Source of the DNA: Lentisphaeria bacterium UBA1724
GTDB lineage: Bacteria; Verrucomicrobiota; Lentisphaeria; Oligosphaerales; Oligosphaeraceae
Reading direction: 5' to 3'
DNA length: 64,000 bases
Assembly: GCA_002315885.1 (NCBI GenBank)
Contig: DCIO01000110.1
Span: 201 to 64,200 of the forward strand
The position numbers and the translations under genes are program-made. A model generated the notes under the pieces. That model was not told the DNA's origin. It did no database searches and saw only the letters and a program-made list of their open reading frames with translations. Below, piece after piece: positions 8,490-51,115 of the stretch. Within the stretch, counting starts at the first letter, position 1, and each line of letters begins with the position of its first letter.

Positions 8490-10352
8490 TCAATTTGGAT
8501 TTCGGCGTCGAATGGTTTTCCAGATGATGAGGATGGTAATGGTGAGGAGGACCAGACTTCCCGCCATGCCCGTCGAATAGTGGTTGGAGAGATTTATGCA
8601 GTCATCCCAGTGCAGGACGGCGAGGAGTGCCAGGAGAATTCCCATGATTCCTTCGCCCGCAATCAATCCTGAACAAAGGAGCACGCCCCGTTCCGAGGGT
8701 TCATTTTTTCCGTCAATCATGTGTTTTAGTAATCCGCCGATAAGAATGGGTGCGGTGGATGCCATCGGCAGGAATACGCCAATGGCAACGCCCAGTGAAG
8801 GAATGCCCAGCAGTTCCATCGTCAGGGAGATGGCGGCGCCCACAAGCAACAAATCCCAGGACATCGTGTCCTGCATGACGCCCTCGACCACCAATTTCAT
8901 CAGATGGGCCTGCGGGGCTGGGAGTTGCTCGGAGCCGAAGCCCCAGGCTTTGTCCAGAAGAAGCACCACGCCACCGACGCAGCAGGCAGCCCCTAGAACG
9001 CCAATGATCTCGCCGATTTGCTGTTTTTGGGGCGTCGCTCCAAGCAGGAACCCTGTCTTCAAATCCTGAGAGGTGTCTCCCGCAATGGTGGTGATGATGC
9101 AGCACATGGTGGCGATGGCCATGGCGGCAATCATTCCCTCCGTAGGTGACAATGAGGTCCGTTTGAGAATCGACGCGGCAATGAGCAGTGCGGCGATCGT
9201 CATTCCTGAACAGGGTGAGTTGCTGGCACCGATGATGCCGACAATGCGCGACGCCACCAGCGAAAAGCAAAACCCGCAGACTGCAAAGAGCAGTACACCG
9301 AAGCAATTCAGCGGAATTTGGGGCAGGGCCGCCAGCAAGACCAGCACTAGGACGATCCCCGCCACAAGAAGCCGGTTGTCCAGATCCTTGTCGGTTCTGG
9401 CATCCTCTTTGTCTCCTGCTTTCAGCCCTTTGAAGGCGCCTGCCAGAGAGGCTCCGATGAGGGGCATGGCTTTTATCAATCCCGTAATGCCCCCGCAGGC
9501 GACTGCCCCCGCGCCAATGTATCGGATATAGGTGCTCCAAATGGCGGGTGCGCCACCCTGTTCGTAGATGGAGGCGATGGTGGAGCTGCCCGGAGCAATC
9601 ACATTCTCGCCGCCGAATTTGACAATCAGGGGAATTAGCACGAACCAGCTCAGAAAACTCCCCGCGAAGAGTGTGGCAGATACCTTCAGACCGCAAATGT
9701 ATCCCACGCCTAACAGGGCAGGGTAGGGCTCCATGGCGAATATGGTCTGAAGTTTTTTGACGGGAACCACGACGGCGGACGAACAGAGACGCAAGCCGTC
9801 TATCAGCAACTTGCTGACGGCACCGAGTATGGCACCAATGAAAATGGCGGAACCATTTTGGGCTTTGTTTTCCGCGGAGAGCAGGACGACGGCGCAGGCG
9901 CGTCCCTCGGGAAACAGGAGCCGTTCGTGTTCCGTCTTCACCAGGAAATGCCGTAAGGGAATCATGAACAGCACGCCCAGGACGCCACCAAAGAGCGCCA
10001 AAAGGGTAATGGTGCTGAAGGGCTGGGGCTTGGTGACCCCTTCCTGACTCCACAAGGCAAAGACTGGCACCGTGAAGATCACGCCCGCCGCCATGGACTC
10101 TCCCGCAGAGGCGATGGTCTGAGCCATGTTGTTCTCCAAAATGGATTGCCTGCGAAGCAACACACGAAGGATGATCATAGAGATGACCGACGCGGGAATA
10201 GAGGCGGATATCGTCATGCCGATACGCAATCCCAGATAGGCATTCGCGGCTCCAAATACAACGGAAAGAATTACGCCAATGAGGATTGACGCGACGGAAA
10301 ATTCACGTTGGTTTTGGTTGGATGAAATAAATGGATGTGAGTCAAAATTCAT
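8490..10352 (-). CDS. OPT-family oligopeptide transporter
   Basis: 620-aa polytopic membrane protein. The N-terminus (REFSVASILIGVILSVVFGAANAYLGLRIGMTISASIPASVISM) is typical of bacterial OPT transporters. Confidence 0.85.
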   Translation of the reverse strand: MNFDSHPFISSNQNQREFSVASILIGVILSVVFGAANAYLGLRIGMTISASIPASVISMIILRVLLRRQSILENNMAQTIASAGESMAAGVIFTVPVFALWSQEGVTKPQPFSTITLLALFGGVLGVLFMIPLRHFLVKTEHERLLFPEGRACAVVLLSAENKAQNGSAIFIGAILGAVSKLLIDGLRLCSSAVVVPVKKLQTIFAMEPYPALLGVGYICGLKVSATLFAGSFLSWFVLIPLIVKFGGENVIAPGSSTIASIYEQGGAPAIWSTYIRYIGAGAVACGGITGLIKAMPLIGASLAGAFKGLKAGDKEDARTDKDLDNRLLVAGIVLVLVLLAALPQIPLNCFGVLLFAVCGFCFSLVASRIVGIIGASNSPCSGMTIAALLIAASILKRTSLSPTEGMIAAMAIATMCCIITTIAGDTSQDLKTGFLLGATPQKQQIGEIIGVLGAACCVGGVVLLLDKAWGFGSEQLPAPQAHLMKLVVEGVMQDTMSWDLLLVGAAISLTMELLGIPSLGVAIGVFLPMASTAPILIGGLLKHMIDGKNEPSERGVLLCSGLIAGEGIMGILLALLAVLHWDDCINLSNHYSTGMAGSLVLLTITILIIWKTIRRRNPN

Positions 10353-10472
10353 AGGAAGTGCCTCCTGGCTGTACGCCTGAGCCCGCCACGCATGTATTTA
10401 ATGCCTTAATATATCAGTGATATTCCGAATTGTCCTTCATTCTGGCTTTCGGGTTATTCCAGGTGTAGCCAG

Positions 10473-10594
10473 GTTGAAAAATCTTGAATTCGTGATGATT
10501 GTCTAGTTGAAAAATCTTGAATTTGTGATAGTGTTTGGGTTGAAAAATCTTGAATTCGTGATAAATTCATTGGAAAGGATCTTGAATTCGTGAT
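10473..10594 (+). repeat. Four 24-bp direct repeats at exact 33-bp phasing (iteron/operator-like) upstream of the AAA-ATPase gene
   Basis: GTTGAAAAATCTTGAATT[C/T]GTGAT at 10473, 10506 and 10539, plus a degenerate copy tGgAAAggATCTTGAATTCGTGAT at 10571. The array ends 18 nt before the ATG. Confidence 0.85.
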
Positions 10595-15000: not shown

Positions 15001-16632
15001 GCTGCTGGGATAGAGGAATTCGTAGTTCGGGTTGCTCTTGCGGTGGAGTTTCCCTCCGGTATTGCAATCCGGAGTGAGGATGTCTGCTGCGCCTGGCGTT
15101 GCAACCTGGCTCAGGATGGGAAATTCGCTGGTCCAAAGACCGGATGCCGTGCTATGGTTGTCCACGGTCAGCATCCATTCGGCGCGGGAGCCTATGACAT
15201 GGATGGTTGCGGTCACGTCGGCAGTGCCCGTTTCGTCCACGGGCAGATTCTTCCAGGTGATGGTGATGGTGTCGCCATCGCGTTGAATGGCGGTGTTTTC
15301 CATTGGCACATCCAGGCTGCTGCGGGTGAAGGTCTCGTCGGAGGCCATGCCTTTCCTGAAATTGAGGCGCCACAACGGCCGCGGGTCCTGGCTGGCGCAA
15401 AAGATGGGGCCGCCTTTCTTGGAACGGATGCCATTGCAGGCGAAGCCGTGGGCGATGTCCGAAAAGGAGAGCACCAGGTCGTCGAACTCGAATACTTTGG
15501 CGCCCTGGAATTCGGTGGCCTTGTCGGCACTAAGGGCTGCAGTGCTTGCATCCGTGGTGTATGCCAGGACAACGGGTGCCTTGGCCTGGCTGAGGAATGA
15601 GGCATACCACTGGGAAGCCGTGCTGGATGGCCCCAAATAGAGCTTCGTGTCGATGGAAACACCGTCTTTGAGCTGCCAGACCTTGTTGGGCCGCAGGTAG
15701 TAGACGAATTGCTTCTGGGCATCGAAGCCGGTGGCAGGAGCAACCATGCCCACGGCGTCGTGGTCATTTTCCATGACAATCCATCCCTCCTTGAATACAT
15801 TGACCGCCTCGGGTTCCACAAGGCGATTGGGGAGGATTTCCTTTGCGTGGACGCCCTCCTGGTCCTCCCAGGCAAAGCGGTTGTATTTGAGGACATTGTT
15901 GGAGATTTGGCAGAAATTCAATTCGGGCCAGGTGTAGCCATCAGGGACGGTGCCGGTGAATTCCACTTGGACCACGGGGGAGAATGCGGTGTAGATGAAA
16001 CGGTAGTGGACTACGGGGGTTCCTGGCGCGTAGATGCCTGCATCGCTGATGTAGCCCGTGGTGGTCTCCACGACGGCGCGGAGGGGATTGGCGGAGACGA
16101 GGCGCGCGGTGCCCATTTCGTCCAGATATGCACGGTATTGCCCGCCCCGTTCTTTGCTGTGGAGTCGGTCAATGAAGGTGAGGGTGTTGTCGGTGTTCCC
16201 GCTGAAATTGAAGGAGAAATCCCGTGGCAGGCCGCCTGCGCCGAGGGTAGGGTGGTTCAGTGAGAAATACTGGTTGCGTATCTGGATGGTGCTGCCCTCA
16301 ACAAAGGCATTCAAATCAGTGGATAGGTCAGCGGGCACTCCTTCGACAAAGGAGAAATTGCGATTCTCTCCTGCGCGGACAATCCCAGACAGAAGGATGC
16401 TCAGGGTGGCGGTGCCGTCAGACTCTTCCGTAAAGGCATAGGGCGTGGACGCATTGGAGAGGGAATCTACCAACGCCTTCCCCTTCGCCTCGGAATATTG
16501 CTCGGGGGACAAACTGCAATTCACCACCAGGTTCGTGTAGTCAGAGGAAATCTTCTTGACTTCCACCTTGACTACGGCGAAGAGGCTACAGGCCAATAGG
16601 AGTAACACGGATAATGCCAGGAGTTTTTTCAT
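12085..16632 (-). CDS. Very large secreted multidomain protein; central DUF6259-like putative glycoside-hydrolase core, C-terminal CBM9/DOMON-like carbohydrate-binding domain
   Basis: 1515 aa with signal peptide MKKLLALSVLLLLACSLFA. Core motifs HWYDWHVIPFDTYYPEY, AIYLDQIGA, EHGH. C-terminal DGDLSDWEG...AFAWDEECLYIAAQVRDD. Function call from memory, tentative. Confidence 0.6.
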   Translation of the reverse strand: MKKLLALSVLLLLACSLFAVVKVEVKKISSDYTNLVVNCSLSPEQYSEAKGKALVDSLSNASTPYAFTEESDGTATLSILLSGIVRAGENRNFSFVEGVPADLSTDLNAFVEGSTIQIRNQYFSLNHPTLGAGGLPRDFSFNFSGNTDNTLTFIDRLHSKERGGQYRAYLDEMGTARLVSANPLRAVVETTTGYISDAGIYAPGTPVVHYRFIYTAFSPVVQVEFTGTVPDGYTWPELNFCQISNNVLKYNRFAWEDQEGVHAKEILPNRLVEPEAVNVFKEGWIVMENDHDAVGMVAPATGFDAQKQFVYYLRPNKVWQLKDGVSIDTKLYLGPSSTASQWYASFLSQAKAPVVLAYTTDASTAALSADKATEFQGAKVFEFDDLVLSFSDIAHGFACNGIRSKKGGPIFCASQDPRPLWRLNFRKGMASDETFTRSSLDVPMENTAIQRDGDTITITWKNLPVDETGTADVTATIHVIGSRAEWMLTVDNHSTASGLWTSEFPILSQVATPGAADILTPDCNTGGKLHRKSNPNYEFLYPSSGGAPTQFFAFMQDGYGLYFASHDGEARPKTMRLTIDPDSYFALLAENQGTPGVGLHQPFPYVTEVFQGTWWKAAKLYRAWAAENAKWLKQGLIRENPDYPKAIQEICYWFQTWKDGPGMSKYMQTAMERCPVKHGVHWYDWHVIPFDTYYPEYNPAKPGVPDTAQAIAARGQICMPYINGRLWDLDIDSFKTEGITGASLDPKGETYVEIYPSQRRQAPMCSASETWQKKMLEVCDWMLNDCHFNAIYLDQIGASAPALCYNPEHGHTLGGGTYWVDGYREMLSAINQEAAKHNAFLTTENTTECYMDNIHAFLTWGQFHDTDVPLLAAIYSGYTYYFGSTTTPEDTDQAFRMIQGRAFLWGTQLGWNVDYLLGKRFEHRFNYQMQLAKLREATLDFLSLGELMGEITPLNTVPLVHETWNFRPGKSYPASEGNVPALQGTYWQNAKGELCVYLVNYTDEVQPLEYNLPKLDNSKDVLLTLITQNGRAPMEVVPNGARRKTALLPQEVAVLHIVPADNQDVLTQAEKSARETLNAPKDERLRNAAEKFLLLRNVKCEVEAPDIVKLVTGENPVIDLHLKGNFKTDATIEAILDAENATRMTVVPQNGVIDAKLGISFEMAQKVLATNGGLFTTRITFAEHDGALTLPMRFKVTDPFEVEVRLPEQIFAGDSFPCEVVVKNNTSHSQDLQVQLSLPEGCTTPYAGAETLFLKEVAPNSSRSTCLTLITDKDAELEEAQFSAMLVLSQVKAITSIQPPRPEYHASKATGIVLDGDLSDWEGRQFVQVGENTPRRIIYKTHPYGGNSDLSARVAFAWDEECLYIAAQVRDDIHVNPEKTGDIWKGDAIQVSIREKGPAMKASDIGKLYEFALGCDDNGAFVYTWANLAHLLNLTKAAQTIHGDTITMEFSVPWKVIGLPNPTAENTYGISFVVPDMDTTDRPVAKLNSMDGYIEWTPGIFYGKNPSRFAWLYLE

Positions 16633-16685
16633 AGGACGGATAGGACGGGTAGGACGGGTAGGACGGGTAGGACGGATAGGACGGG
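16632..16685. repeat. Tandem nonamer array (TAGGACGGR) x6, abutting/overlapping the start codon of the 1515-aa gene
   Basis: taggacgga taggacggg x3 taggacgga taggacggg read directly. In the sense of the minus-strand gene this reads (CCCGTCCTA)n followed immediately by ATG (16630-16632). Confidence 0.9.
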
Positions 16686-16720
16686 AATTGAGAATTGAGA
16701 ATTGAGAATTGAGAATTGAG
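16685..16720. repeat. Tandem heptamer array (GAATTGA) x5, directly 3' of the stop of the 860-aa gene
   Basis: gaattga x5 read directly. The stop codon (tta on the plus strand) is at 16721-16723. Same unit in the same gene-relative orientation at 48651-48686. Confidence 0.9.
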
Positions 16721-19303
16721 TTACCGTCTTTCCACCCATTTTGCGGCGTAGAGTCCTGCGGGGTGGATGTCGTGTGCGGGGGCGATGATTTGTCCGTGGA
16801 GGCGTTCTTTGCCGAAGAGTGTTGCGATGGGGATTTCCAGGGTAATTTGGAGGGTGGTGTCCTTTCCCTTGATGTCTGTGGGGATGTCCCAGTCGAAGGG
16901 CGCCCAGAGACGGCATCCCAGATTCTGTCCGTTGATTGCGACGGATGCGCAGTGTCCTGCGGTCTCCAGGCGGAGTGCGTCGGCGGTTTCGGGGATGTTG
17001 ACCGTCCGAGTCAGAGTGGCTTTCCCGATGAAATTTCGGAATCCCTGTTCGGAGAGTGGTCCCAGTCGGACACTCTTGGGCAGTGGTCCGATGGTCATTT
17101 CGCCTGGGCGTACCATTTTGACGGCGAAATTGCCCAGTAGGAATGCGCTGGGCAGGTAGGGGTATTCCGTCTTTTTGCCATCCAGTGCGAGAGTGTGTCT
17201 GCCGGATTCCAGGTCGATTGTCTCGCTGGTGCGGTAGAGTGGCGCCACCCCCTGGGGAAGGCCCTCGCCTGGGTTGCTGGCGGAAATGGGCGTGCCATCC
17301 ATTCGCACTGCCCCTGGGACGCCGTATGCGCGGATTAGTGCCTTGGGGCAGGGCGTGTCCTTGGCGACTGTCAGGCGGAGAGTCCCCTCTGCATCGTATT
17401 CGGGGCAGAGGATGTTCTTGCGGTCCAGCACGATTTCCCAGGGTGCGTCGGGGAGGTCCAATGCGTATTCCACGAAATCGGCAGAGGGTTGGTCGGTGTC
17501 GTGGAAGATTTTGATGTCGCCCGCGGGCAGATTGAAGATGATATCCCGGTCGGGGTTGGGACCGATACGGAAATGCAGACGCCGGGTGGGTGCATCGGGT
17601 TCTCGGAGGTCCAGGGCAACGCAGGTGCCGTCGTCGTAGTATCGGAGCATGACGTCCCTGGCGAGGGTGTCTCGTGAATTCATGACTCGGAAAGGCTGGC
17701 AGTAGTTGATGTCGAGATAGAGCATGAATGCCGCCATGTCGAAGAAGGTCTTCTTGCTGATTTCGTCGTAGATTGAGCCGTCCTTTTGGAATGTGACCAC
17801 GGCCAGTGCGTCTTTCGAGGCGGCGTCATCCTTGTGGATGAATCTCCAGGAGCGTTGGTAGCGTGTCATGAGTCGCAGGTAGTACGGCTGGTTGGAGAAG
17901 TCCTCTGCGTAGCGGATTTCCACCTCGACTTTGTTCCAGGGTTTCCGTGCAAAACGCGCGGCTTCCTTTGCGGTTTCGCCCAATTGGTCATAGTGGTCGA
18001 ACCAGGTCTGAGCGGGTGAGGTGGGGTTGAACCACATGGTCTTGTGGAGATTCCCTTCCGCCTGGAATTGCGAGACCGCCAGCAGATAATGGTCCACTCC
18101 GAAGAGCGCGGTGAGCCAGATCATCTGTTTGTAGGAACCGGGCTGCATGTCACCGGGGCCTAGGGCGAATAATTCCGCCAATCCGCAGCCACGCTGACGA
18201 CTGCCGTATTCCACCGTTCCCAGGGTCTGCCATTCGATGGCGTCGGGATTGGTGTTGGTGAAGATTTCGTCCATCCCCGGCATGGAGAAGCCCGCATTTG
18301 CCAGGAGTGGATCGCCGTTGTATCGGGCGGCCTGGCAATCCAATTCGTTCATCAGGTGCCCCGTAAGGAGGATGCCGTGGTTTTCGCACCAGGTGCGGAT
18401 GGTATCGAAGTATGTCTTGCGGAAACGCGCTCCCATGAGCTTCTGGTATGGAACCCGATAGCAGAAGGGCGCGGTGCCCTGGAGATGGGCGCGGAGGTCC
18501 TCTTTCAATTCGTGTCCCGTCAATTCTCGGTATTCTTCCTCCAGTTCGGGATACCAGGCCAGGCGGACTTCGGTGTCGCTGTCGCCCTCATATTGCTCGT
18601 AGTAGTATGCTACGGAGGGCTCGTCAGAGAAAATGCCCTTGATGAGCGTGCCGAAATACTTCCCGAAGCGCTTGTAGTATTCTTCGTGGGTGAGCTGGAT
18701 GAAGAGTTCCACCGCCTCGGGATTCAGCAGGTTGGGGAACTGCTTCAGGGACTTGAGCTCGAAGGTGATTTCGCTAGGCTGTTTTTTTCGCCCTAAAGGG
18801 CTCACACAGGACAGAAGGGCCTCTCTACTAGCCCGGGGTTGGGAATTCTTCCTGGCATAGAGGCACTGGACGGCGAAGGCCTCCCGTGCCTGCATTACGC
18901 GCCCCGCGCATTGTCCGCTGGGCCAATTGAATTCGTCATAGAGCCAGATGGATGTATAGCCGTGCGCTTCTGCGGCGTCCAACACATTCTGGATTGCCTG
19001 GAACCACTCTTCGGAGAGGTATTCCAGCTCACAGCCCGAGCGGGGATAGAGCAGAAACTGGGTGATGCCCACCCGCCGGAATTCCCCCATGAATTGGGAG
19101 ATGAACTCCCGGGAGGGGCGCCCCGTTACCGCACTCATGGGAATTAGCGGATTTTCCTGGGGGGCGGGAGTTTTTCGCGCTAAAGCGCTCACACAGGACG
19201 GAAGGGACTCTCTGCTATCCCGAGGAGTGGTGTTTTGTTGGGCAGGAAGAAGCATGGCAAGCGGGAAAAACAGAAGAAGCAGAAATCGCATGAATTGATT
19301 CAT
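16721..19303 (-). CDS. Secreted glycoside-hydrolase-like protein with C-terminal jelly-roll (GH2 sugar-binding-like) domain; contains two in-frame repeat-element insertions
   Basis: 860 aa with signal peptide MNQFMRFLLLLFFPLAMLLPA. TIM-barrel-like N-terminal part (FLLYPRSG, WLYDEFNWPSG). C-terminal RNFIGKATLTRTV...INGQNLG. Function tentative. Confidence 0.6.
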   Translation of the reverse strand: MNQFMRFLLLLFFPLAMLLPAQQNTTPRDSRESLPSCVSALARKTPAPQENPLIPMSAVTGRPSREFISQFMGEFRRVGITQFLLYPRSGCELEYLSEEWFQAIQNVLDAAEAHGYTSIWLYDEFNWPSGQCAGRVMQAREAFAVQCLYARKNSQPRASREALLSCVSPLGRKKQPSEITFELKSLKQFPNLLNPEAVELFIQLTHEEYYKRFGKYFGTLIKGIFSDEPSVAYYYEQYEGDSDTEVRLAWYPELEEEYRELTGHELKEDLRAHLQGTAPFCYRVPYQKLMGARFRKTYFDTIRTWCENHGILLTGHLMNELDCQAARYNGDPLLANAGFSMPGMDEIFTNTNPDAIEWQTLGTVEYGSRQRGCGLAELFALGPGDMQPGSYKQMIWLTALFGVDHYLLAVSQFQAEGNLHKTMWFNPTSPAQTWFDHYDQLGETAKEAARFARKPWNKVEVEIRYAEDFSNQPYYLRLMTRYQRSWRFIHKDDAASKDALAVVTFQKDGSIYDEISKKTFFDMAAFMLYLDINYCQPFRVMNSRDTLARDVMLRYYDDGTCVALDLREPDAPTRRLHFRIGPNPDRDIIFNLPAGDIKIFHDTDQPSADFVEYALDLPDAPWEIVLDRKNILCPEYDAEGTLRLTVAKDTPCPKALIRAYGVPGAVRMDGTPISASNPGEGLPQGVAPLYRTSETIDLESGRHTLALDGKKTEYPYLPSAFLLGNFAVKMVRPGEMTIGPLPKSVRLGPLSEQGFRNFIGKATLTRTVNIPETADALRLETAGHCASVAINGQNLGCRLWAPFDWDIPTDIKGKDTTLQITLEIPIATLFGKERLHGQIIAPAHDIHPAGLYAAKWVERR
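18786..18826 (+). repeat. Interspersed hairpin element ('CACAGGAC element'), intragenic copy, GCCC/GGGC stem variant
   Basis: tttcgccctaaagggctcacacaggacagaagggcctctct. Translated in the host CDS as ..LLSCVSPLGRK.. Confidence 0.85.
19173..19213 (+). repeat. Interspersed hairpin element, intragenic copy, GCGC/GCGC stem variant
   Basis: tttcgcgctaaagcgctcacacaggacggaagggactctct. Translated in the host CDS as ..LPSCVSALARK.. Confidence 0.85.
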
Positions 19304-19351
19304 GATTCAAGATTTTGGATTTCAATCAATTCAGAATCGAGAATCAAGAAT

Positions 19352-20104
19352 CTATTTTGGGAAGGACACTGCCACACCGATGCGTGCGGCGGCGGCCATC
19401 AGGAGTTCCAGGCGCTTTTGAAGCGGTGTGTCGTCATAAACAGACATGTTGTTGGAAAGCGAGAGTCCCGCGATGAGTTCGCCGTTCATGGAACGGACGG
19501 GGACAGCCAAGGACCAGACGCCCTCCACGGATTCATTCTGGATCAAGGCGTATTGCTTCTCGGCGATTTCACCGCAGAGGCGGTCCAATTTTCCCACGTC
19601 GGTGACGGTTTCCCGGGTGACTTGCCGGCGGATGATGCGCTTAAAGAGACGCCGCCGTTCCTCGGTGGGCATGAGCGCCACGATCAGTCGTCCGCATGCG
19701 GTGGAGTGGAGTTGGTCCATCCAGCGTTGTTCTGGGGGCGTAAAGAAGTTGTCTTCGGGATTCAGGATGGACAGGCAGAGCAGGGTGTCATTCTCGATGG
19801 TGCCCAGGAAGACGGTGCATTGGGTGTCATCCCGCAGTTCTTTCAGGATTGCGTTGGAGGACTTTCGCAGGTCATGCCAGTGGTCGGCGGCCTGTCCCAG
19901 GTAGAAACAGTGGGACCCCAGGCGGTACTTTCGGGAGGTGTCCTGGCTGACAAGCCGCAGAGAGTAGAGCTCACGGAGGATGTTCCCTACAGTCTGCTGA
20001 GATAGGCCTAGCTGTTGCGCCAACATGCTGGCGGAGACCGTCTCCGGGCTATTTGCCGCCAGGATGTCTAGGATTTCGATGGCTCTGTCTATGGATTGGA
20101 TCAT
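19352..20104 (-). CDS. IclR-family transcriptional regulator
   Basis: MIQSIDRAIEILDILA...MLAQQLGLSQQTVGNILRELYSLRLV winged HTH plus a C-terminal IclR effector domain. The start is set at the ATG at 20104, because the longer ORF (to 20173) begins inside repeat DNA. Confidence 0.85.
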   Translation of the reverse strand: MIQSIDRAIEILDILAANSPETVSASMLAQQLGLSQQTVGNILRELYSLRLVSQDTSRKYRLGSHCFYLGQAADHWHDLRKSSNAILKELRDDTQCTVFLGTIENDTLLCLSILNPEDNFFTPPEQRWMDQLHSTACGRLIVALMPTEERRRLFKRIIRRQVTRETVTDVGKLDRLCGEIAEKQYALIQNESVEGVWSLAVPVRSMNGELIAGLSLSNNMSVYDDTPLQKRLELLMAAAARIGVAVSFPK

Positions 20105-20111
20105 GGGCAAT

Positions 20112-20250
20112 TGGGGATTTCGCGCTAAAGCGCTGGGGATTTCGCGCTGGTGATTTCGCGCTAAAGCGCTCACACAGGACAGAAGGGTCTCTCTCCTTTC
20201 CAGGGGGATTGGTAAAAGCGCTGGGGATTTCGCGCTGGGGATTTCGCGCC
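20112..20250 (+). repeat. Cluster of five GGGGATTTCGCGCT-type 14-mers surrounding one CACAGGAC element (20154-20194)
   Basis: ggggatttcgcgct at about 20113, 20135, 20223 and 20237, plus ggtgatttcgcgct at about 20149. The full element tttcgcgctaaagcgctcacacaggacagaagggtctctct is at 20154-20194. Confidence 0.85.
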
Positions 20251-20300
20251 CCTCGTTTCGCTGGGCTTGCGCCCGCTACACGAGGGGCTGCACCTACGGG
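20249..20300 (+). repeat. Second interspersed element family (CCCCTCGT...ACGAGGGG stem-loop), copy 1
   Basis: cccctcgtttcgctgggcttgcgcccgctacacgaggggctgcacctacggg. 8-bp inverted repeat. Closely similar to 32573-32624. Confidence 0.8.
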
Positions 20301-20345
20301 CGGCTGGCGCCGCCTCTTGGCTTCCCGCAGTTCTGAGGGGGAAAA

Positions 20346-21368
20346 TTAATCTTCTTTCCAGAGGGTGGTGATTTTCTTGAAGGTGTTCACGCGTTCCAGG
20401 TTCATGGCGTCGGGGGCATCCATGGTGGGGCAGATCCAGGCGCCTTCCTCGAATTCATTCCAAGCGAAGGTCATGATGTGCCCTAGCTGGGAGGCGCTGG
20501 GATTGTCCTTCATCCAGGTCTTGAGGGTTTTGGCGGCGTCCAGGAGTTCTGCGGGGGTGGCCTTTGGGGCGTAGGTCTCGGTGGGATAGGCGCACCAGGG
20601 GACGGGGTGGTCGATGCGTGGTTGTGGATCCCACCCCATGGTGAAAAGCGGAATGGAGGGGAAGGAACCGCTGGCGCGGACGGTGTTGGCCCTGAGGCAT
20701 CCCTCGGCCAGTTCGCCGTAGGTCTTGGTGGGCAGGCCGAATGCGTATGCGGAGAGTGCGCAGATGTCGGTGCCGGGTGCGGGTGGTTCTCCCCAGGTCA
20801 TGAAGGTGAAGAATGGCTCTGGTGTGCCGGCTTCCTGGCAGATTTTGCGAATGCGCTGTTGGAGTTCGTCCCAGGGTGCCACGTAGAAGAACACCAGCGG
20901 TCTGCCGTCGATCTTTTCATAGCAATCCTGTTGCATAGTCAGCGCCAGGTCCTTCAGTTCCGCATCCGTGTAGGGATGGCTGTTGATGAGGATGGCGCAG
21001 AGGTGGAGCTTGTTTCGCAGGGGGCTCTGGAGGTGCTTCATACGGGCGCCCACCAATTCGCAGACATGTGCATCTACTGTGATGGCGGCGGAAGTGTCCA
21101 CGTGGTCTTCATGGGGTTCCCGGTCATACCAGCAGTATGCGAAGTAGTCGATGCCCGCGTCAATGGCCAGTTGCATTTCCCGGTCGAAGGATTCTTGGGT
21201 GCGCTCAGGGAAGTCGATTTTGCCGTCTCCCAGGTCGATGGCGTAGTAGGGGGTGCGGTCACGGAATTTCGTTTCCCCCAGGGACTTGGTGGCGTAGCTG
21301 CCGAAGAATGTGGTAGAGGGAAGGGCGCAATCCCAATTGACAACGCCCACGCGTTTGATGATGCTCAT
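20346..21368 (-). CDS. Hypothetical protein, possibly a glycoside-hydrolase-like TIM-barrel (GH99/WbsX-like?)
   Basis: 340 aa from MSIIKRVGVVNWD. This start leaves a 29-nt gap after the upstream gene; the longer ORF would overlap it. No signal peptide. Function call weak. Confidence 0.5.
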   Translation of the reverse strand: MSIIKRVGVVNWDCALPSTTFFGSYATKSLGETKFRDRTPYYAIDLGDGKIDFPERTQESFDREMQLAIDAGIDYFAYCWYDREPHEDHVDTSAAITVDAHVCELVGARMKHLQSPLRNKLHLCAILINSHPYTDAELKDLALTMQQDCYEKIDGRPLVFFYVAPWDELQQRIRKICQEAGTPEPFFTFMTWGEPPAPGTDICALSAYAFGLPTKTYGELAEGCLRANTVRASGSFPSIPLFTMGWDPQPRIDHPVPWCAYPTETYAPKATPAELLDAAKTLKTWMKDNPSASQLGHIMTFAWNEFEEGAWICPTMDAPDAMNLERVNTFKKITTLWKED

Positions 21369-28875: not shown

Positions 28876-28930
28876 GCTTTCCGAAGGGACCGTCAAACCG
28901 CCATTACGGTCGGGGGGACGGGCGCCGCCC

Positions 28931-29058
28931 TTTTTCGACGGCGGGGACGCCGTCGGTACACCCCTTTTCGACGGCGGGGACGCCGTCGGTACATCCCTTT
29001 TTCGACGGCGGGGACGCCGTCGGTACACCCCTTTTCGACGGCGGGGACGCCGTCGGGA
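28931..29058. repeat. Four tandem 33/34-bp units, each with an 8-bp-stem GGGA-tetraloop hairpin
   Basis: TTTTCGACGGCGGGGACGCCGTCGGTACACCCC x4. Hairpins CGACGGCG-GGGA-CGCCGTCG at 28936, 28969, 29003 and 29036. Lies between convergent genes. Confidence 0.9.
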
Positions 29059-29066
29059 CTTCCTGG

Positions 29067-29483
29067 TTACTTTTCTTGTTCGAGATATTTAGTCAGTTCA
29101 GCGACTGCCATTTGGATAAGTCTGGTGGTATTGTAGTCTGAGATACCGACCACGATATTTTCGCATTGGTTGAAGGGGATCAGGATGCGTCTGGCGTTGC
29201 TTTGGGCGACAGCCAATGCCATGGCGGGGGTGATTTCGCCATACATGGCATCTGCGATGACAATTCCCAGGGGGCCAATGATGACATCTGCGGTGCGGCA
29301 AGCCACGATGACCGCGTTTTCGCCGGTTGCGGCGTGAGTCGCACCTGCCTTTAACATGACGCTGGCGGCGACGCTGTTTGTGCCGACGGCGAGGATGTCC
29401 ATTTCGGGGTAGGCGTTACGGATGGCGGAAACCAGTTGTTTCCCCAGTCCGCCACCATGTGCATCAATAATCAGTATTTTCAT
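29067..29483 (-). CDS. DUF3842-family protein
   Basis: 138 aa from MKILIIDAHGGGLGKQLV...GTNSVAASVMLKAGA...TGENAV...GPLGIV, matching the DUF3842 pattern I remember. The longer ORF (to 29717) overlaps the next gene. Confidence 0.75.
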   Translation of the reverse strand: MKILIIDAHGGGLGKQLVSAIRNAYPEMDILAVGTNSVAASVMLKAGATHAATGENAVIVACRTADVIIGPLGIVIADAMYGEITPAMALAVAQSNARRILIPFNQCENIVVGISDYNTTRLIQMAVAELTKYLEQEK

Positions 29484-31194: not shown

Positions 31195-31309
31195 GACTGA
31201 CTCCTTATAATCAAAATCTTCCGCATGAAAGCGGCAAACCGATAGTATAAAGGCAATTGCACGTTTTTCACATGGATTCGGCGGCTTTTTCGGGTTTCTT
31301 TGGGAGGAA

Positions 31310-31339
31310 TAGGACGGATAGGACGGATAGGACGGATAG
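31310..31339. repeat. Tandem nonamer array (TAGGACGGA) x3.3 in divergent intergenic region
   Basis: taggacgga x3 plus tag read directly. Same unit and same orientation as 16632-16685. Lies 115 nt upstream of the minus-strand acyl-CoA synthetase start. Confidence 0.9.
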
Positions 31340-31415
31340 ATGAACGCATAATGGGAAACGATATACATTATCCACACACGTTTCTACAAAAATGCATTGA
31401 TAGAATCATCATCCC

Positions 31416-32510: not shown

Positions 32511-32572
32511 CGGGGACTGACATAAATCGTTTGAAGCTCCGCCGCCTTTCGCCTTTCCGCGGTTCTGGAATG

Positions 32573-32624
32573 CCCCTCGTTTCGCCGGGTTGACGCCCGC
32601 TACACGAGGGGCGCACCTACGGGG
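32573..32624 (+). repeat. Second interspersed element family (CCCCTCGT...ACGAGGGG), copy 2
   Basis: cccctcgtttcgccgggttgacgcccgctacacgaggggcgcacctacgggg. Aligns with 20249-20300 with few substitutions. Confidence 0.8.
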
Positions 32625-38574: not shown

Positions 38575-38581
38575 GGCTTAA

Positions 38582-38612
38582 TTTCGCGCTAAAGCGCTCA
38601 CACAGGACAGAA
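38582..38612 (+). repeat. Interspersed hairpin element (CACAGGAC element), 3'-truncated copy
   Basis: tttcgcgctaaagcgctcacacaggacagaa, 8 nt after the purB start codon region (intergenic). Confidence 0.85.
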
Positions 38613-38692
38613 AATTGGTATGCGGAATGAGTTACGGATGGGGAGATGTCCCCATACTCCTCTTTTACTCAATGCTTCATGATTTCTACTTC

Positions 38693-38724
38693 ATTAAGCA
38701 TTGAGCATTAAGCATTAAGCATTG
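38693..38724. repeat. Tandem heptamer array (ATTAAGC) x ~4.5, directly 3' of the purC stop in gene sense
   Basis: attaagc attgagc attaagc attaagc attg read directly. In purC sense this reads TAA-ttc-(AATGCTT)n, the same orientation as the array after accA. Confidence 0.9.
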
Positions 38725-46152: not shown

Positions 46153-46261
46153 CCTTTTCGGAGAAAGAGTATTCCAGGGTTACGGCGATAGGGGCAATTT
46201 AGGATATATTGAGGAATTGGCGGAAAATAAAAGTGTGTGGCAATCGTTAATGGAGGTAGCA

Positions 46262-46696
46262 ATGAGTTCTTATGTAGAACTGCCCATGGGCATTAGCTTG
46301 ATTCCGTGTGATACTCTCATTGAGGATCGCATTTCGGGGAAGAAGTCTCTCGTGGGTATCATTGGCGCCATTCGGGTCACCAAGTTCCCCTGCGTCTATC
46401 CCGCGTTTCATTTGCTTGTCTCCCTGACCAGCGGCAATGGCAGCTACCCCTGCACGTTGGAGTTGGTTAGTGAGAGCAAGAACGAGGTGATTTTTTCGGG
46501 AAAGGGAACGCTGAAATTCAAGAACCCCACGCAGGTCGTGGATCTGGTCTTCATGCTCCAGCGTCTGAATTTCAACTACCCCGATACCTACTGGATTAAG
46601 TTCCTGGTGGATGGGGAAACCCTGATGATGCGCCCCTTGCACGTGACCTTGCTGGACCCCCCGGAGGATTCCGCAAAACGCGATGCTTCGCTCTAA
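46262..46696 (+). CDS. Small hypothetical protein (beta-rich; possibly DUF6941-like)
   Basis: 144 aa from the ATG at 46262, preceded by GGAGG 5 nt upstream. Pattern IPCD...GIIGAI...FP...FHLLVSL...WIKFLVDGE resembles DUF6941 from memory; low certainty on family. Confidence 0.6.
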   Translation: MSSYVELPMGISLIPCDTLIEDRISGKKSLVGIIGAIRVTKFPCVYPAFHLLVSLTSGNGSYPCTLELVSESKNEVIFSGKGTLKFKNPTQVVDLVFMLQRLNFNYPDTYWIKFLVDGETLMMRPLHVTLLDPPEDSAKRDASL

Positions 46697-46703
46697 ACCT
46701 TTT

Positions 46704-46862
46704 TTTCGCCCTAAAGGGCTCACACAGGACAGAAGGATCTCGTACCTGCTCAAGGGCTCACACAGGACAGAAGGGCCTCGAAGCTGCTCCAGGTTTTCCA
46801 GTTTTCGCCCTAAAGGGCTCACACAGGACAGAAGGGCATCGGAGTTGCTCCAGGTTTTCCAG
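46704..46862 (+). repeat. Three CACAGGAC elements (one 5'-truncated) embedded in a ~62-bp tandem unit
   Basis: Copies at 46704, 46752 and 46803. The last two are each followed by ...gctccaggttttccag. All GCCC/GGGC stem variant. Confidence 0.88.
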
Positions 46863-46908
46863 TTTTCCCAGTGGCGAAGAGGGGTATGGGGAAACCTCCC
46901 CATCCTTC

Positions 46909-46939
46909 ATTAAGCATTAAGCATCAAGCATTAAGCATT
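46909..46939. repeat. Tandem heptamer array (ATTAAGC) x ~4.4, 8 nt upstream of gspF ATG
   Basis: attaagc attaagc atcaagc attaagc att read directly. Preceded by hairpin ATGGGGA-aacc-TCCCCAT (46886-46903). Confidence 0.9.
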
Positions 46940-50946: not shown

Positions 50947-51115
50947 CCCCGGGGCTCTCGCCCCGGGCACAGGACCCGGGGGCTGCCGCTCCGGGCACAC
51001 GACCCGGGGGCTCTGCGCTCCGGGCACACGACCCGGGAGCTCTGCGCTCCGGGCACACGACCCGGGGGCTGCCGCCCCCTCCCGGGGCTCTCGCTCCGGG
51101 CACAGGACCCGCTCC
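50947..51115. repeat. About five tandem 28-32-bp GC-rich units, each with a CCGGG-CACACGA-CCCGG hairpin
   Basis: ccgggcaca[c/g]gacccggg[g/a]gct[ctg/gc]cgct at 50963, 50991, 51020 and 51049, plus a degenerate end copy at 51096. Starts right after the ruvB stop. Confidence 0.88.

Follow-up and report, generated by a model that had tools for sequence, protein, structure and literature searches.

A short interspersed repeat read in frame within a glycoside-hydrolase-like gene of a Victivallales-like bacterium

Rickettsia palindromic elements (RPEs) are dispersed through intergenic DNA and also sit, in frame, within conserved protein genes, where the host open reading frame (ORF) remains intact and the added peptide is tolerated by the fold (PMC10969869). 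They are approximately 100–150 bp in length, palindromic over the whole unit, found only in Rickettsia and represented by dozens of coding-sequence insertions (PMC10969869). In-frame fusion with host ORFs, together with spurious or extended ORF calls, is also known for ERIC, BOX, QMITE1 and the Anabaena MITEs (PMC10969869). A preliminary description of the locus considered here knew of no account of such colonization in PVC-type bacteria. Our literature search likewise found no account of such elements in Lentisphaerota or the PVC group, but the novelty is smaller than was implied because ERIC, BOX, QMITE1 and the Anabaena MITEs, well beyond Rickettsia, are also found in frame within genes (PMC10969869). 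The repeat analysed here, from a stretch of 64 000 nucleotides of a Lentisphaeria contig (the window), adds Lentisphaerota (PVC group) to the bacteria in which short repeats colonize protein genes in frame. It is a concrete case, open to checking, of a repeat that supplies an enzyme loop and rewrites the N-termini of two proteins.

REP and REPIN sequences are short, hairpin-bearing and mostly extragenic, often lie in tandem clusters, lack terminal inverted repeats and target-site duplications, and are mobilized by RAYTs; REPs are imperfect palindromes of 20–40 nt with a conserved GTAG-type head, often arranged as inverted pairs. Elements derived from IS200/IS605 also lack terminal inverted repeats and target-site duplications. 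They insert strand-specifically relative to replication, 3' of a fixed tetranucleotide or pentanucleotide, and carry subterminal hairpins at both ends.

The repeat in the window has a core of 41 nt and a long form of 55–60 nt (Table 1). Exact matches to the pattern TTTCGCSCTAAAGSGCTCACACAGGAC start at positions 18786, 19173, 20154, 38582, 46704 and 46803 of the + strand. The 100 shuffled controls contained no match, which confirms the interspersed element of approximately 41 bp with two copies inside the 860-codon ORF. A half copy at 46756 was picked up with a 19-mer core and a partial copy at 20116–20134 was added by nhmmer, which found no copies in the window beyond these six full, one half and one partial copies, every one of them on the + strand. 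The core is almost unchanging among copies, with 27 invariant positions, and its minus-strand reading is AGAGAGNCCCTTCTGTCCTGTGTGAGCSCTTTAGSGCGAAA. Such near-invariance could signal a sequence-specific function instead of recent spread. A 4-bp stem (GCSC/GSGC) that closes a TAAA loop is the sole consistent structure; it is paired in nine of nine copies, and a double change from C-G to G-C separates six copies from three. The palindrome spans 12 nt (GCSCTAAAGSGC), and no inverted repeats of at least 7 nt were found in or around the copies, so the element is without terminal inverted repeats. It had been called a hairpin and palindromic element; the hairpin stands, but the unit is barely palindromic. 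Inspection of the flanks of all copies gave no target-site duplication and only a one-sided T-run of 3–7 nt.

Table 1. Coordinates of the repeat copies and associated genes in the window.
Feature	Position	Strand	Remarks
Host ORF, 860 codons	16721..19303	-	Glycoside-hydrolase-like TIM barrel, no Pfam family
Intragenic long-form copy, 60 nt	18783..18842	+	Minus-strand reading at approximately residues 155–174, QPRASREALLSCVSPLGRKK; nhmmer long-form hit
Long-form copy at the 5' end of the ORF	19170..19230	+	Approximately residues 25–45; in-frame GTG at codon 38
IclR-family regulator	19352..20095	-	True start MIQSIDR; Pfam HTH_IclR at residues 1–52, also IclR_C; JGI call of 250 aa
Partial copy (T-run and hairpin, 20112–20134) and tandem 14-nt sub-repeats GGGGATTTCGCGCT flanking the full copy	20112..20250	+	
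Long-form intergenic copy	20151..20210	+	Upstream of the IclR-family gene; its GTG gives an over-extended 273-aa ORF
Core-only copy	38579..38613	+	purC–purB spacer; ends 7 nt upstream of the minus-strand purB ATG
Tandem array, two full cores and one half core	46701..46862	+	Downstream of the DUF6941 gene, upstream of the T2SS-F gene

The element resembles RPEs in forming a dispersed multi-copy family that lies both between genes and in frame in a conserved gene, with an unbroken host ORF and an added peptide placed where the fold (here that of a predicted model) can accommodate it. It differs in its length of 41–60 nt, its 4-bp stem and its coding cases, which comprise one internal copy and two at gene 5' ends. 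Its host is Victivallales-like, with its closest protein homologues in Victivallales and Lentisphaeria metagenome-assembled genomes (MAGs), and it matched no RNA or repeat family in the Rfam searches. In-frame joining to ORFs and misleading ORF calls are shared with ERIC, BOX, QMITE1 and the Anabaena MITEs; unlike the element, which has neither terminal repeats nor target duplications, those families have terminal inverted repeats or are modular, and are usually larger. With REP/REPIN sequences it shares shortness, a hairpin, a mostly extragenic location, tandem clusters and the lack of terminal inverted repeats and target duplications, whereas the 12-nt palindrome within a 41-nt unit, the direct orientation of all copies, the presence of GTAG in one copy only and the absence of a RAYT gene from the approximately 89 kb examined set it apart. 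Terminal inverted repeats and target duplications are lacking as in IS200/IS605-derived elements, but there is a single hairpin and no common target motif save the variable T-run.

Searches of Rfam at both gathering and E-value thresholds assigned no family to the element; a sub-threshold chance match to a snoRNA fell on the neighbouring hairpin. Promoter and terminator scans placed no site within the element and gave no sigma-70-like promoter match. An intrinsic terminator was rejected, as the T-run precedes the hairpin, the wrong order, on both strands. A CsrA site (ACAGGAC) and a CRISPR repeat were dropped together, on account of irregular spacing, absent spacers and a poor motif fit. A lipobox or Tat motif in the encoded peptide was likewise discarded: the Cys is too distant from any hydrophobic core and the motif is missing in orthologues.

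The 860-residue host protein gave no Pfam hit. Of its 790 homologues, proteins from Victivallales MAGs come closest, and even the nearest is only approximately 60% identical. The AlphaFold2 model is confident (pLDDT 90.3, pTM 0.90), with low pLDDT confined to the insert and residues 1–45, and its Foldseek matches include structures of GH106, GH42 and GH35, at E-values as low as 2e-20. Compared with 24, and then 117, aligned homologues, the protein shows a net gain of 20 residues (exactly 60 nt) at the internal copy, and the SCVSPLGR columns hold no residues in any of the 117. This is the clean indel that the preliminary description had anticipated, and as judged from the alignment the copy at 18783–18842 is a genuine in-frame insertion into a conserved glycoside-hydrolase-like (GH-like) gene, with the ORF unbroken. 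The same empty columns bear on the opposite reading, in which the protein had the peptide segment from the outset and fragments of the gene gave rise to the intergenic copies. That reading would have the peptide in distant orthologues, and no evidence in its favour was found; moreover, copies with an identical core lie at a distance of 28 kb and on another contig, against approximately 60% identity between the host protein and its closest homologue. We regard it as extremely improbable.

In the model, the insert lies between the strands at residues 144–152 and 179–190, at the tip of a β-hairpin, with pLDDT values of 56–79. Unrelated insertions occur in the same loop in approximately 12 homologues, and the loop is variable across the family. 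The structure prediction thus agrees with the suggestion of a tolerated loop, and the 20 added residues are predicted to form a surface loop at a position compatible with the fold. The insertion persists because the unit is 60 nt, the frame is open and the site is an insertion-tolerant β-hairpin tip; its outcome resembles that of RPEs. The predicted tryptic peptide of the insert is EALLSCVSPLGR.

Could the intragenic copies be an assembly artefact, or the gene a decaying pseudogene? Repeats do confuse these assemblies, with contigs that break at copies and two arrays that differ between versions. Against this, an independent assembly of a different sample from a second metagenome (L014; sample 3300020112) matches window positions 15125–21158 without gaps at 99.97% identity, crosses all three local copies and encodes an 860-residue protein with 859 of 860 residues identical. 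The ORF is intact, every family-invariant residue is kept and the predicted fold is confident, so that an artefact or pseudogene is highly improbable.

The 5'-end copy is of a different kind. It had been placed right after a signal peptide, which does not hold: the first approximately 45 residues are absent from most homologues, which begin M-x(2-11)-ENPLIPM, and are disordered in the model (pLDDT below 50). The comparison with homologues puts the copy at 19170–19230 at the ancestral start-codon position, and not as an internal insertion. From this position, translation would have to begin inside the element, at the GTG, or farther upstream. A DUF7379 gene on another contig from this metagenome (L015) has a similar 5' end, which bears two copies in tandem and in frame. 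Its orthologues open directly with a signal peptide, and the two copies likewise occupy the ancestral start-codon position. Neither gene retains another start codon in the stretch from the element to the conserved N-terminal feature, and the two proteins would gain element-encoded N-terminal residues. With a profile of the frame-A peptides, an exhaustive search recovered a single genuine further host (P0124), three other hits being unrelated repeat proteins.

The disordered and poorly conserved N-terminus would also suit a gene in which the 19173 copy is an untranslated 5' leader, translation of the GH-like protein opens at M56 (ATG at 19138) and only one copy is coding. Nine of the 117 homologues are annotated with a start at the equivalent Met, and an AGGA lies 17 nt upstream of this ATG. 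However, ENPLIP (residues 50–55) would then be lost, and it is present in 108 of 117 homologues, with P52, L53 and P55 at least 90% conserved; it is perfectly kept here despite the divergence of the protein from its relatives, and residues 53–61 form the first β-strand of the model (pLDDT of approximately 97). We consider an untranslated leader possible, if somewhat unlikely.

Both intragenic copies are read in one common minus-strand frame, as previously proposed, giving SLPSCVSALARK at residues 33–44 and LLSCVSPLGRK at residues 163–173. This frame was also said to be free of stops in every copy, which is true of the core; four of the six core frames are open, however, so an open frame alone is weak evidence. 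Of the sense frames of the long form, only the one used by the intragenic copies is free of stops in each of the three, and their sharing it is therefore not an independent coincidence.

In total, approximately nine full copies are known at six loci on two contigs of one genome (approximately 89 kb examined), so that copy number, frame statistics and orientation bias are anecdotal. Pattern scans with a 24-mer containing S positions and with the 19-mer core gave no hits in GTDB species genomes or JGI metagenome contigs; the core was also absent from IMG/VR and, by blastn, from plasmid (PLSDB) and phage records, and was missing at two loci of relatives. Within the collections scanned, the element is so far confined to one uncultured Victivallales-like bacterium.

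The explanation that we consider probable is that of a lineage-restricted, non-autonomous short interspersed repeat, with an RPE-like effect on a gene but not itself an RPE. The Pfam lists of the approximately 89 kb contain no transposase and no empty-site allele was seen; mobility itself is inferred from the near-identical dispersed copies. Copies would be dispersed to new loci by an enzyme acting in trans, which probably recognizes the conserved core or the small hairpin on single-stranded DNA. Single-stranded recognition is suggested because terminal inverted repeats and target duplications are lacking and because orientation tracks the G-rich strand on both contigs: in the window the + strand, which carries the copies, has a GC skew of +0.076, and in the second contig, with its copies on the - strand, the + strand value is -0.113. 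All six loci agree with the sign of the skew (chance of approximately 0.03), although the loci are few and skew is confounded with gene direction. The element also amplifies locally into tandem arrays, with spacings of 36, 69 and 99 nt, each divisible by three. The contig is approximately 93% coding, yet only one or two of five loci lie within coding sequence; most coding-sequence insertions would be purged by purifying selection.

At four of the six loci, the element lies in the sense orientation 0–16 nt upstream of a conserved coding start or start codon, a placement that hints at a cis role or a preferred target. If the element were a functional cis module at gene 5' ends (a leader, a translation-start cassette or a regulator binding site), it would provide a small hairpin, then GAAA, and a GTG in phase, with the internal copy and the antisense array as by-products. 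From its sense 3' end, the distance is 7 nt to the purB ATG, 13 nt to the IclR ATG and 16 nt to the ENPLIP codons, and the DUF7379 signal-peptide core follows it directly. Frame A keeps phase with each of the four genes downstream, the tandem spacings preserve phase, the GH-like and DUF7379 genes are left with no other start past the element and ahead of their conserved N-terminal part, and the core is near-invariant with stem pairing maintained. Set against this are the array at 46704, which is antisense to both neighbouring genes, the mid-gene position of the 18783 copy, the lack of a sigma-70-like promoter or Rfam family, and the absence of a functional theme common to the host genes. GTG starts would be unusual, as 62 of 63 called genes start with ATG, and two of the four cases were found through being in frame, which is an ascertainment bias. 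A cis module is in our view unlikely. Decidedly unlikely is a mobile cassette that inserts strand-specifically just upstream of, or onto, coding starts and donates a hairpin, an A-rich spacer and an in-phase GTG. If this were true, genes without an ATG of their own (GH-like and DUF7379) would be translated from the element, with (M)S[AP]L[AG]R[KRN] as an N-terminal peptide in common, and the mid-gene copy would be a rare off-target event.

Whichever way the interspersed repeat spreads, its copies mislead annotation and assembly. The IclR ORF is over-extended at its N-terminus from the GTG within the element, as had been proposed; the Pfam HTH match opens at residue 1 of MIQSIDR. ORF 46247..46903, also suspected earlier, is spurious because it lies antisense to a gene that matches DUF6941 in Pfam. 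Contigs of other assemblies terminate inside the element at window positions 38610 and 46821, as expected of a multi-copy repeat. Masking would help MAG annotation pipelines to deal with spurious ORFs, over-extended starts, broken metagenome contigs and version-dependent array lengths. Two tandem arrays vary in length between versions of the same contig, the JGI record being 64 nt longer at the array at 46701..46862.

The copy of the element at 18783-18842 corresponds to a clean 20-residue insertion in the 860-aa product of the ORF 16721..19303 (-), as judged by alignment with 24 and then 117 homologues, none of which has residues in the SCVSPLGR columns. At 60 nt, the net insertion is as long as the long form of the repeat, which nhmmer had delimited independently. 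The insert is flanked in the model by strands E144-152 and E179-190 and has pLDDT values of 56-79, with values of at least 94 around it. In orthologues the equivalent strands are connected by a 6-7-residue turn (x-x-D-G-x), and in about 12 homologues of the larger alignment this loop contains other, unrelated insertions of 4-16 residues. Over 15125-21158 the window is 99.97% identical, without gaps, to a 6,034-bp contig from another metagenome (JGI 3300020112), whose 860-aa product shares 859 of 860 residues with the window protein. The clean 60-nt indel, the retention of all family-invariant residues and this second contig agree, and three alternatives were therefore rejected: an assembly artefact (by the gapless contig), a pseudogene (by the 860-aa product with every invariant residue in place) and an ancestral origin of the peptide (by the empty columns). 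The preliminary description had proposed an in-frame copy within the coding sequence near 18786, visible as an indel of ~15-25 aa; this is upheld, with neither orthologues sharing the peptide nor a disrupted or misassembled ORF being found.

The protein has no Pfam family, but 790 homologues were found, the nearest (~60% identical) from Victivallales or Lentisphaeria MAGs. The AlphaFold2 model, built from 118 sequences, is confident (pLDDT 90.3, pTM 0.90) and matches structures of GH106, GH42 and GH35 (E-values down to 2e-20, identity ~10%). The earlier label 'glycoside-hydrolase-like' is thus supported at the level of the predicted fold, and the adjoining genes (Pfam GH123_N and DUF6259/CBM9) agree with it.

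Exact matches to the 27-nt pattern TTTCGCSCTAAAGSGCTCACACAGGAC occur at 18786, 19173, 20154, 38582, 46704 and 46803, all six on the + strand, and in none of 100 shuffles; the positions first reported for the element are therefore confirmed. A 19-mer of its core picks up a half copy at 46756, and a profile search with nhmmer recovers a partial copy at 20116-20134 but no further copies in the 64 kb. The unit conserved across the whole family is ~41 nt, and a longer form of 55-60 nt is common to the three copies near the glycoside-hydrolase-like gene (18783-18842, 19170-19230 and 20151-20210). A 4-bp stem capped by a TAAA loop is the sole secondary structure that recurs consistently. Pairing is kept in all nine copies, and one C-G to G-C double change (six versus three copies) provides modest sequence evidence, a single compensatory event, that the stem may be important. 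Inverted repeats of at least 7 nt are absent from the copies and their surroundings, so that the name 'palindromic element' is an overstatement. Rfam searches and scans for sigma-70-like promoters and intrinsic terminators gave no match to the element.

Loci of the element in the window and on contig EMG_10003664 of the same metagenome
Feature	Coordinates	Strand	Position
Element copy	18783-18842	+	Inside ORF 16721..19303 (-)
Element copy	19170-19230	+	5' end of ORF 16721..19303 (-)
Element copies	20112-20210	+	End 13 nt before the IclR ATG
Element copy	38579-38613	+	3' end 7 nt before the purB ATG
Element array	46701-46862	+	Past the DUF6941 gene stop codon, ahead of the T2SS-F gene; antisense to both
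Two tandem copies	10001-10141 (EMG_10003664)	-	5' end of the DUF7379 gene

The copy at 19170-19230 is less straightforward. Most homologues start M-x(2-11)-ENPLIPM and lack the first ~45 residues of the query (24, then 117 homologues), which have pLDDT values below 50. ENPLIP is present in 108 of the 117, P52, L53 and P55 are conserved at 90% or more, and residues 53-61 form the first β-strand of the model. No ATG, GTG or TTG lies between the element and this strand; the in-frame starts further upstream are ATG at codons 1, 5 and 17 and GTG at codon 38, within the element. If the strand is made, at least the part of the element encoding SALARK must therefore be translated, and we consider it probable that this is so. 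A start at M56, making the copy a 5' leader, is rather unlikely, even with nine homologues annotated as starting at the equivalent Met; translation of the element is the more likely reading. The in-frame location claimed for this copy thus probably holds for the SALARK part, in a 5'-end stretch that most homologues lack. The signal peptide proposed ahead of it is at best putative: residues 7-20 form a hydrophobic stretch that looks like one, but signal peptides are absent from most of the family.

When the peptides of frame A (the sense frame open in every long-form copy) were used for an exhaustive profile search, a second host emerged, a 1193-aa DUF7379 protein (P0124) with source labels identical to those of the glycoside-hydrolase-like protein. 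The two copies at its gene start are in frame and 69 nt apart. Its orthologues have a signal peptide right from the start. P0124 itself has no start codon from the second copy to the hydrophobic core, and its start must therefore be inside the element or upstream, as in the glycoside-hydrolase-like gene. Both copies are part of a 69-nt tandem duplication that includes the non-element flank CCCCATGGAAGCCATG, which indicates that a whole segment was duplicated and not that the element inserted twice. At the IclR locus the Pfam HTH match begins at residue 1 of MIQSIDR; the 273-aa ORF is therefore over-extended from the element GTG, as initially suspected. ORF 46247..46903, which is antisense to the DUF6941 gene, is spurious.

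At four of the six loci the element is in the sense direction and 0-16 nt separate it from the downstream start codon or the beginning of the conserved coding sequence, with frame A in phase with the downstream gene at all four, and the tandem spacings are 36, 69 and 99 nt. The main rival explanation, an action in cis at gene 5' ends, draws on this pattern. However, these loci are subject to ascertainment bias, one array is antisense, one copy is mid-gene and ATG is almost the only start codon used in this genome (62 of the 63 genes called), and we regard such a role as improbable. Across the window and the DUF7379 contig, a Shine-Dalgarno-like motif precedes only 19 of the 63 genes, and initiation seems to be largely independent of Shine-Dalgarno pairing in this organism.

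We favour, as the likely reading, a new, lineage-restricted short interspersed repeat that would disperse by a mechanism acting in trans, amplify locally through slippage or unequal exchange and survive where harmless: in spacers, at gene 5' ends and in a tolerant surface loop, the last because the 60-nt long form is open in one sense frame. Scans of GTDB species genomes, JGI metagenome contigs, IMG/VR, plasmids and phages (collections excluding the window's own contig) gave no match to the core, and two loci of relatives lack it as well. Same-organism contigs of other assemblies terminate within the element at 38610 and 46821, as would be expected if the repeat has many copies. Tandem arrays at 46701-46862, 20112-20250 and the DUF7379 gene show that the element amplifies locally, as does the 46704 array, to which the JGI record of the window contig (EMG_10000474) gives 64 nt more. 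The two records differ only in this array and in a 33/34-nt hairpin array (TTTTTCGACGGCGGGGACGCCGTCGG; 28928-29094), for which the window has ~69 nt more; the cause could be collapse during assembly or a true difference in length. The contig is ~93% coding, but only one or two of five loci are in coding sequence, which fits selection against most gene insertions. All copies are on the strand of positive GC skew (window +0.076; DUF7379 contig -0.113, with its copies on the minus strand). A link of insertion to replication and single-stranded DNA would be consistent with this; however, the loci number only six and skew is confounded with gene direction.

The likeness to Rickettsia palindromic elements (RPEs) drawn in the preliminary description lies in the outcome for host genes, as with intragenic ERIC, BOX, QMITE1 and Anabaena MITEs, for which a recent review describes in-frame fusions as not unusual (PMC10969869). 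The element belongs to none of these groups: it differs from RPEs in size and in the extent of its palindrome, from MITEs in having no terminal repeats or target duplications, and from REPs in its palindrome and in the GTAG feature. A literature search found no such repeat described for Lentisphaerota, and the claimed novelty holds to that extent; the element is a real feature, with only one internal coding-sequence insertion documented, and the phenomenon is established elsewhere.

The + strand order of element, ATGGGGA...TCCCCAT hairpin and CATTAAG heptamer array is shared by 38579-38723 and 46701-46939, though the genes around the two loci run in opposite directions. The three parts may therefore form a larger cassette, or their orientation may follow the chromosome strand. 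Intergenic spacers are largely short tandem repeats (16625-16717, 19305-19350, 31294-31348, 38689-38723, 46905-46939 and 10472-10594), many adjoining start or stop codons: 9-mers GGACGGGTA at two loci, heptamers (GAATTGA, GATTCTN and, at two loci, CATTAAG) and a 33-nt repeat. Between ruvB and the next gene, G+C-rich hairpins of 28/29 nt (CCGGGCACAGGACCCGG...) are arrayed in tandem at 50948-51111. This array and the element have the octamer CACAGGAC in common, on one and the same strand; the octamer occurs ten times in the window (2.1 expected), nine on the + strand. A 41-nt hairpin (GCCCCTCG...CGAGGGGC) with two copies at 90% identity (20248-20288 and 32572-32612), one adjoining the element cluster, seems to represent a further family of small interspersed repeats.
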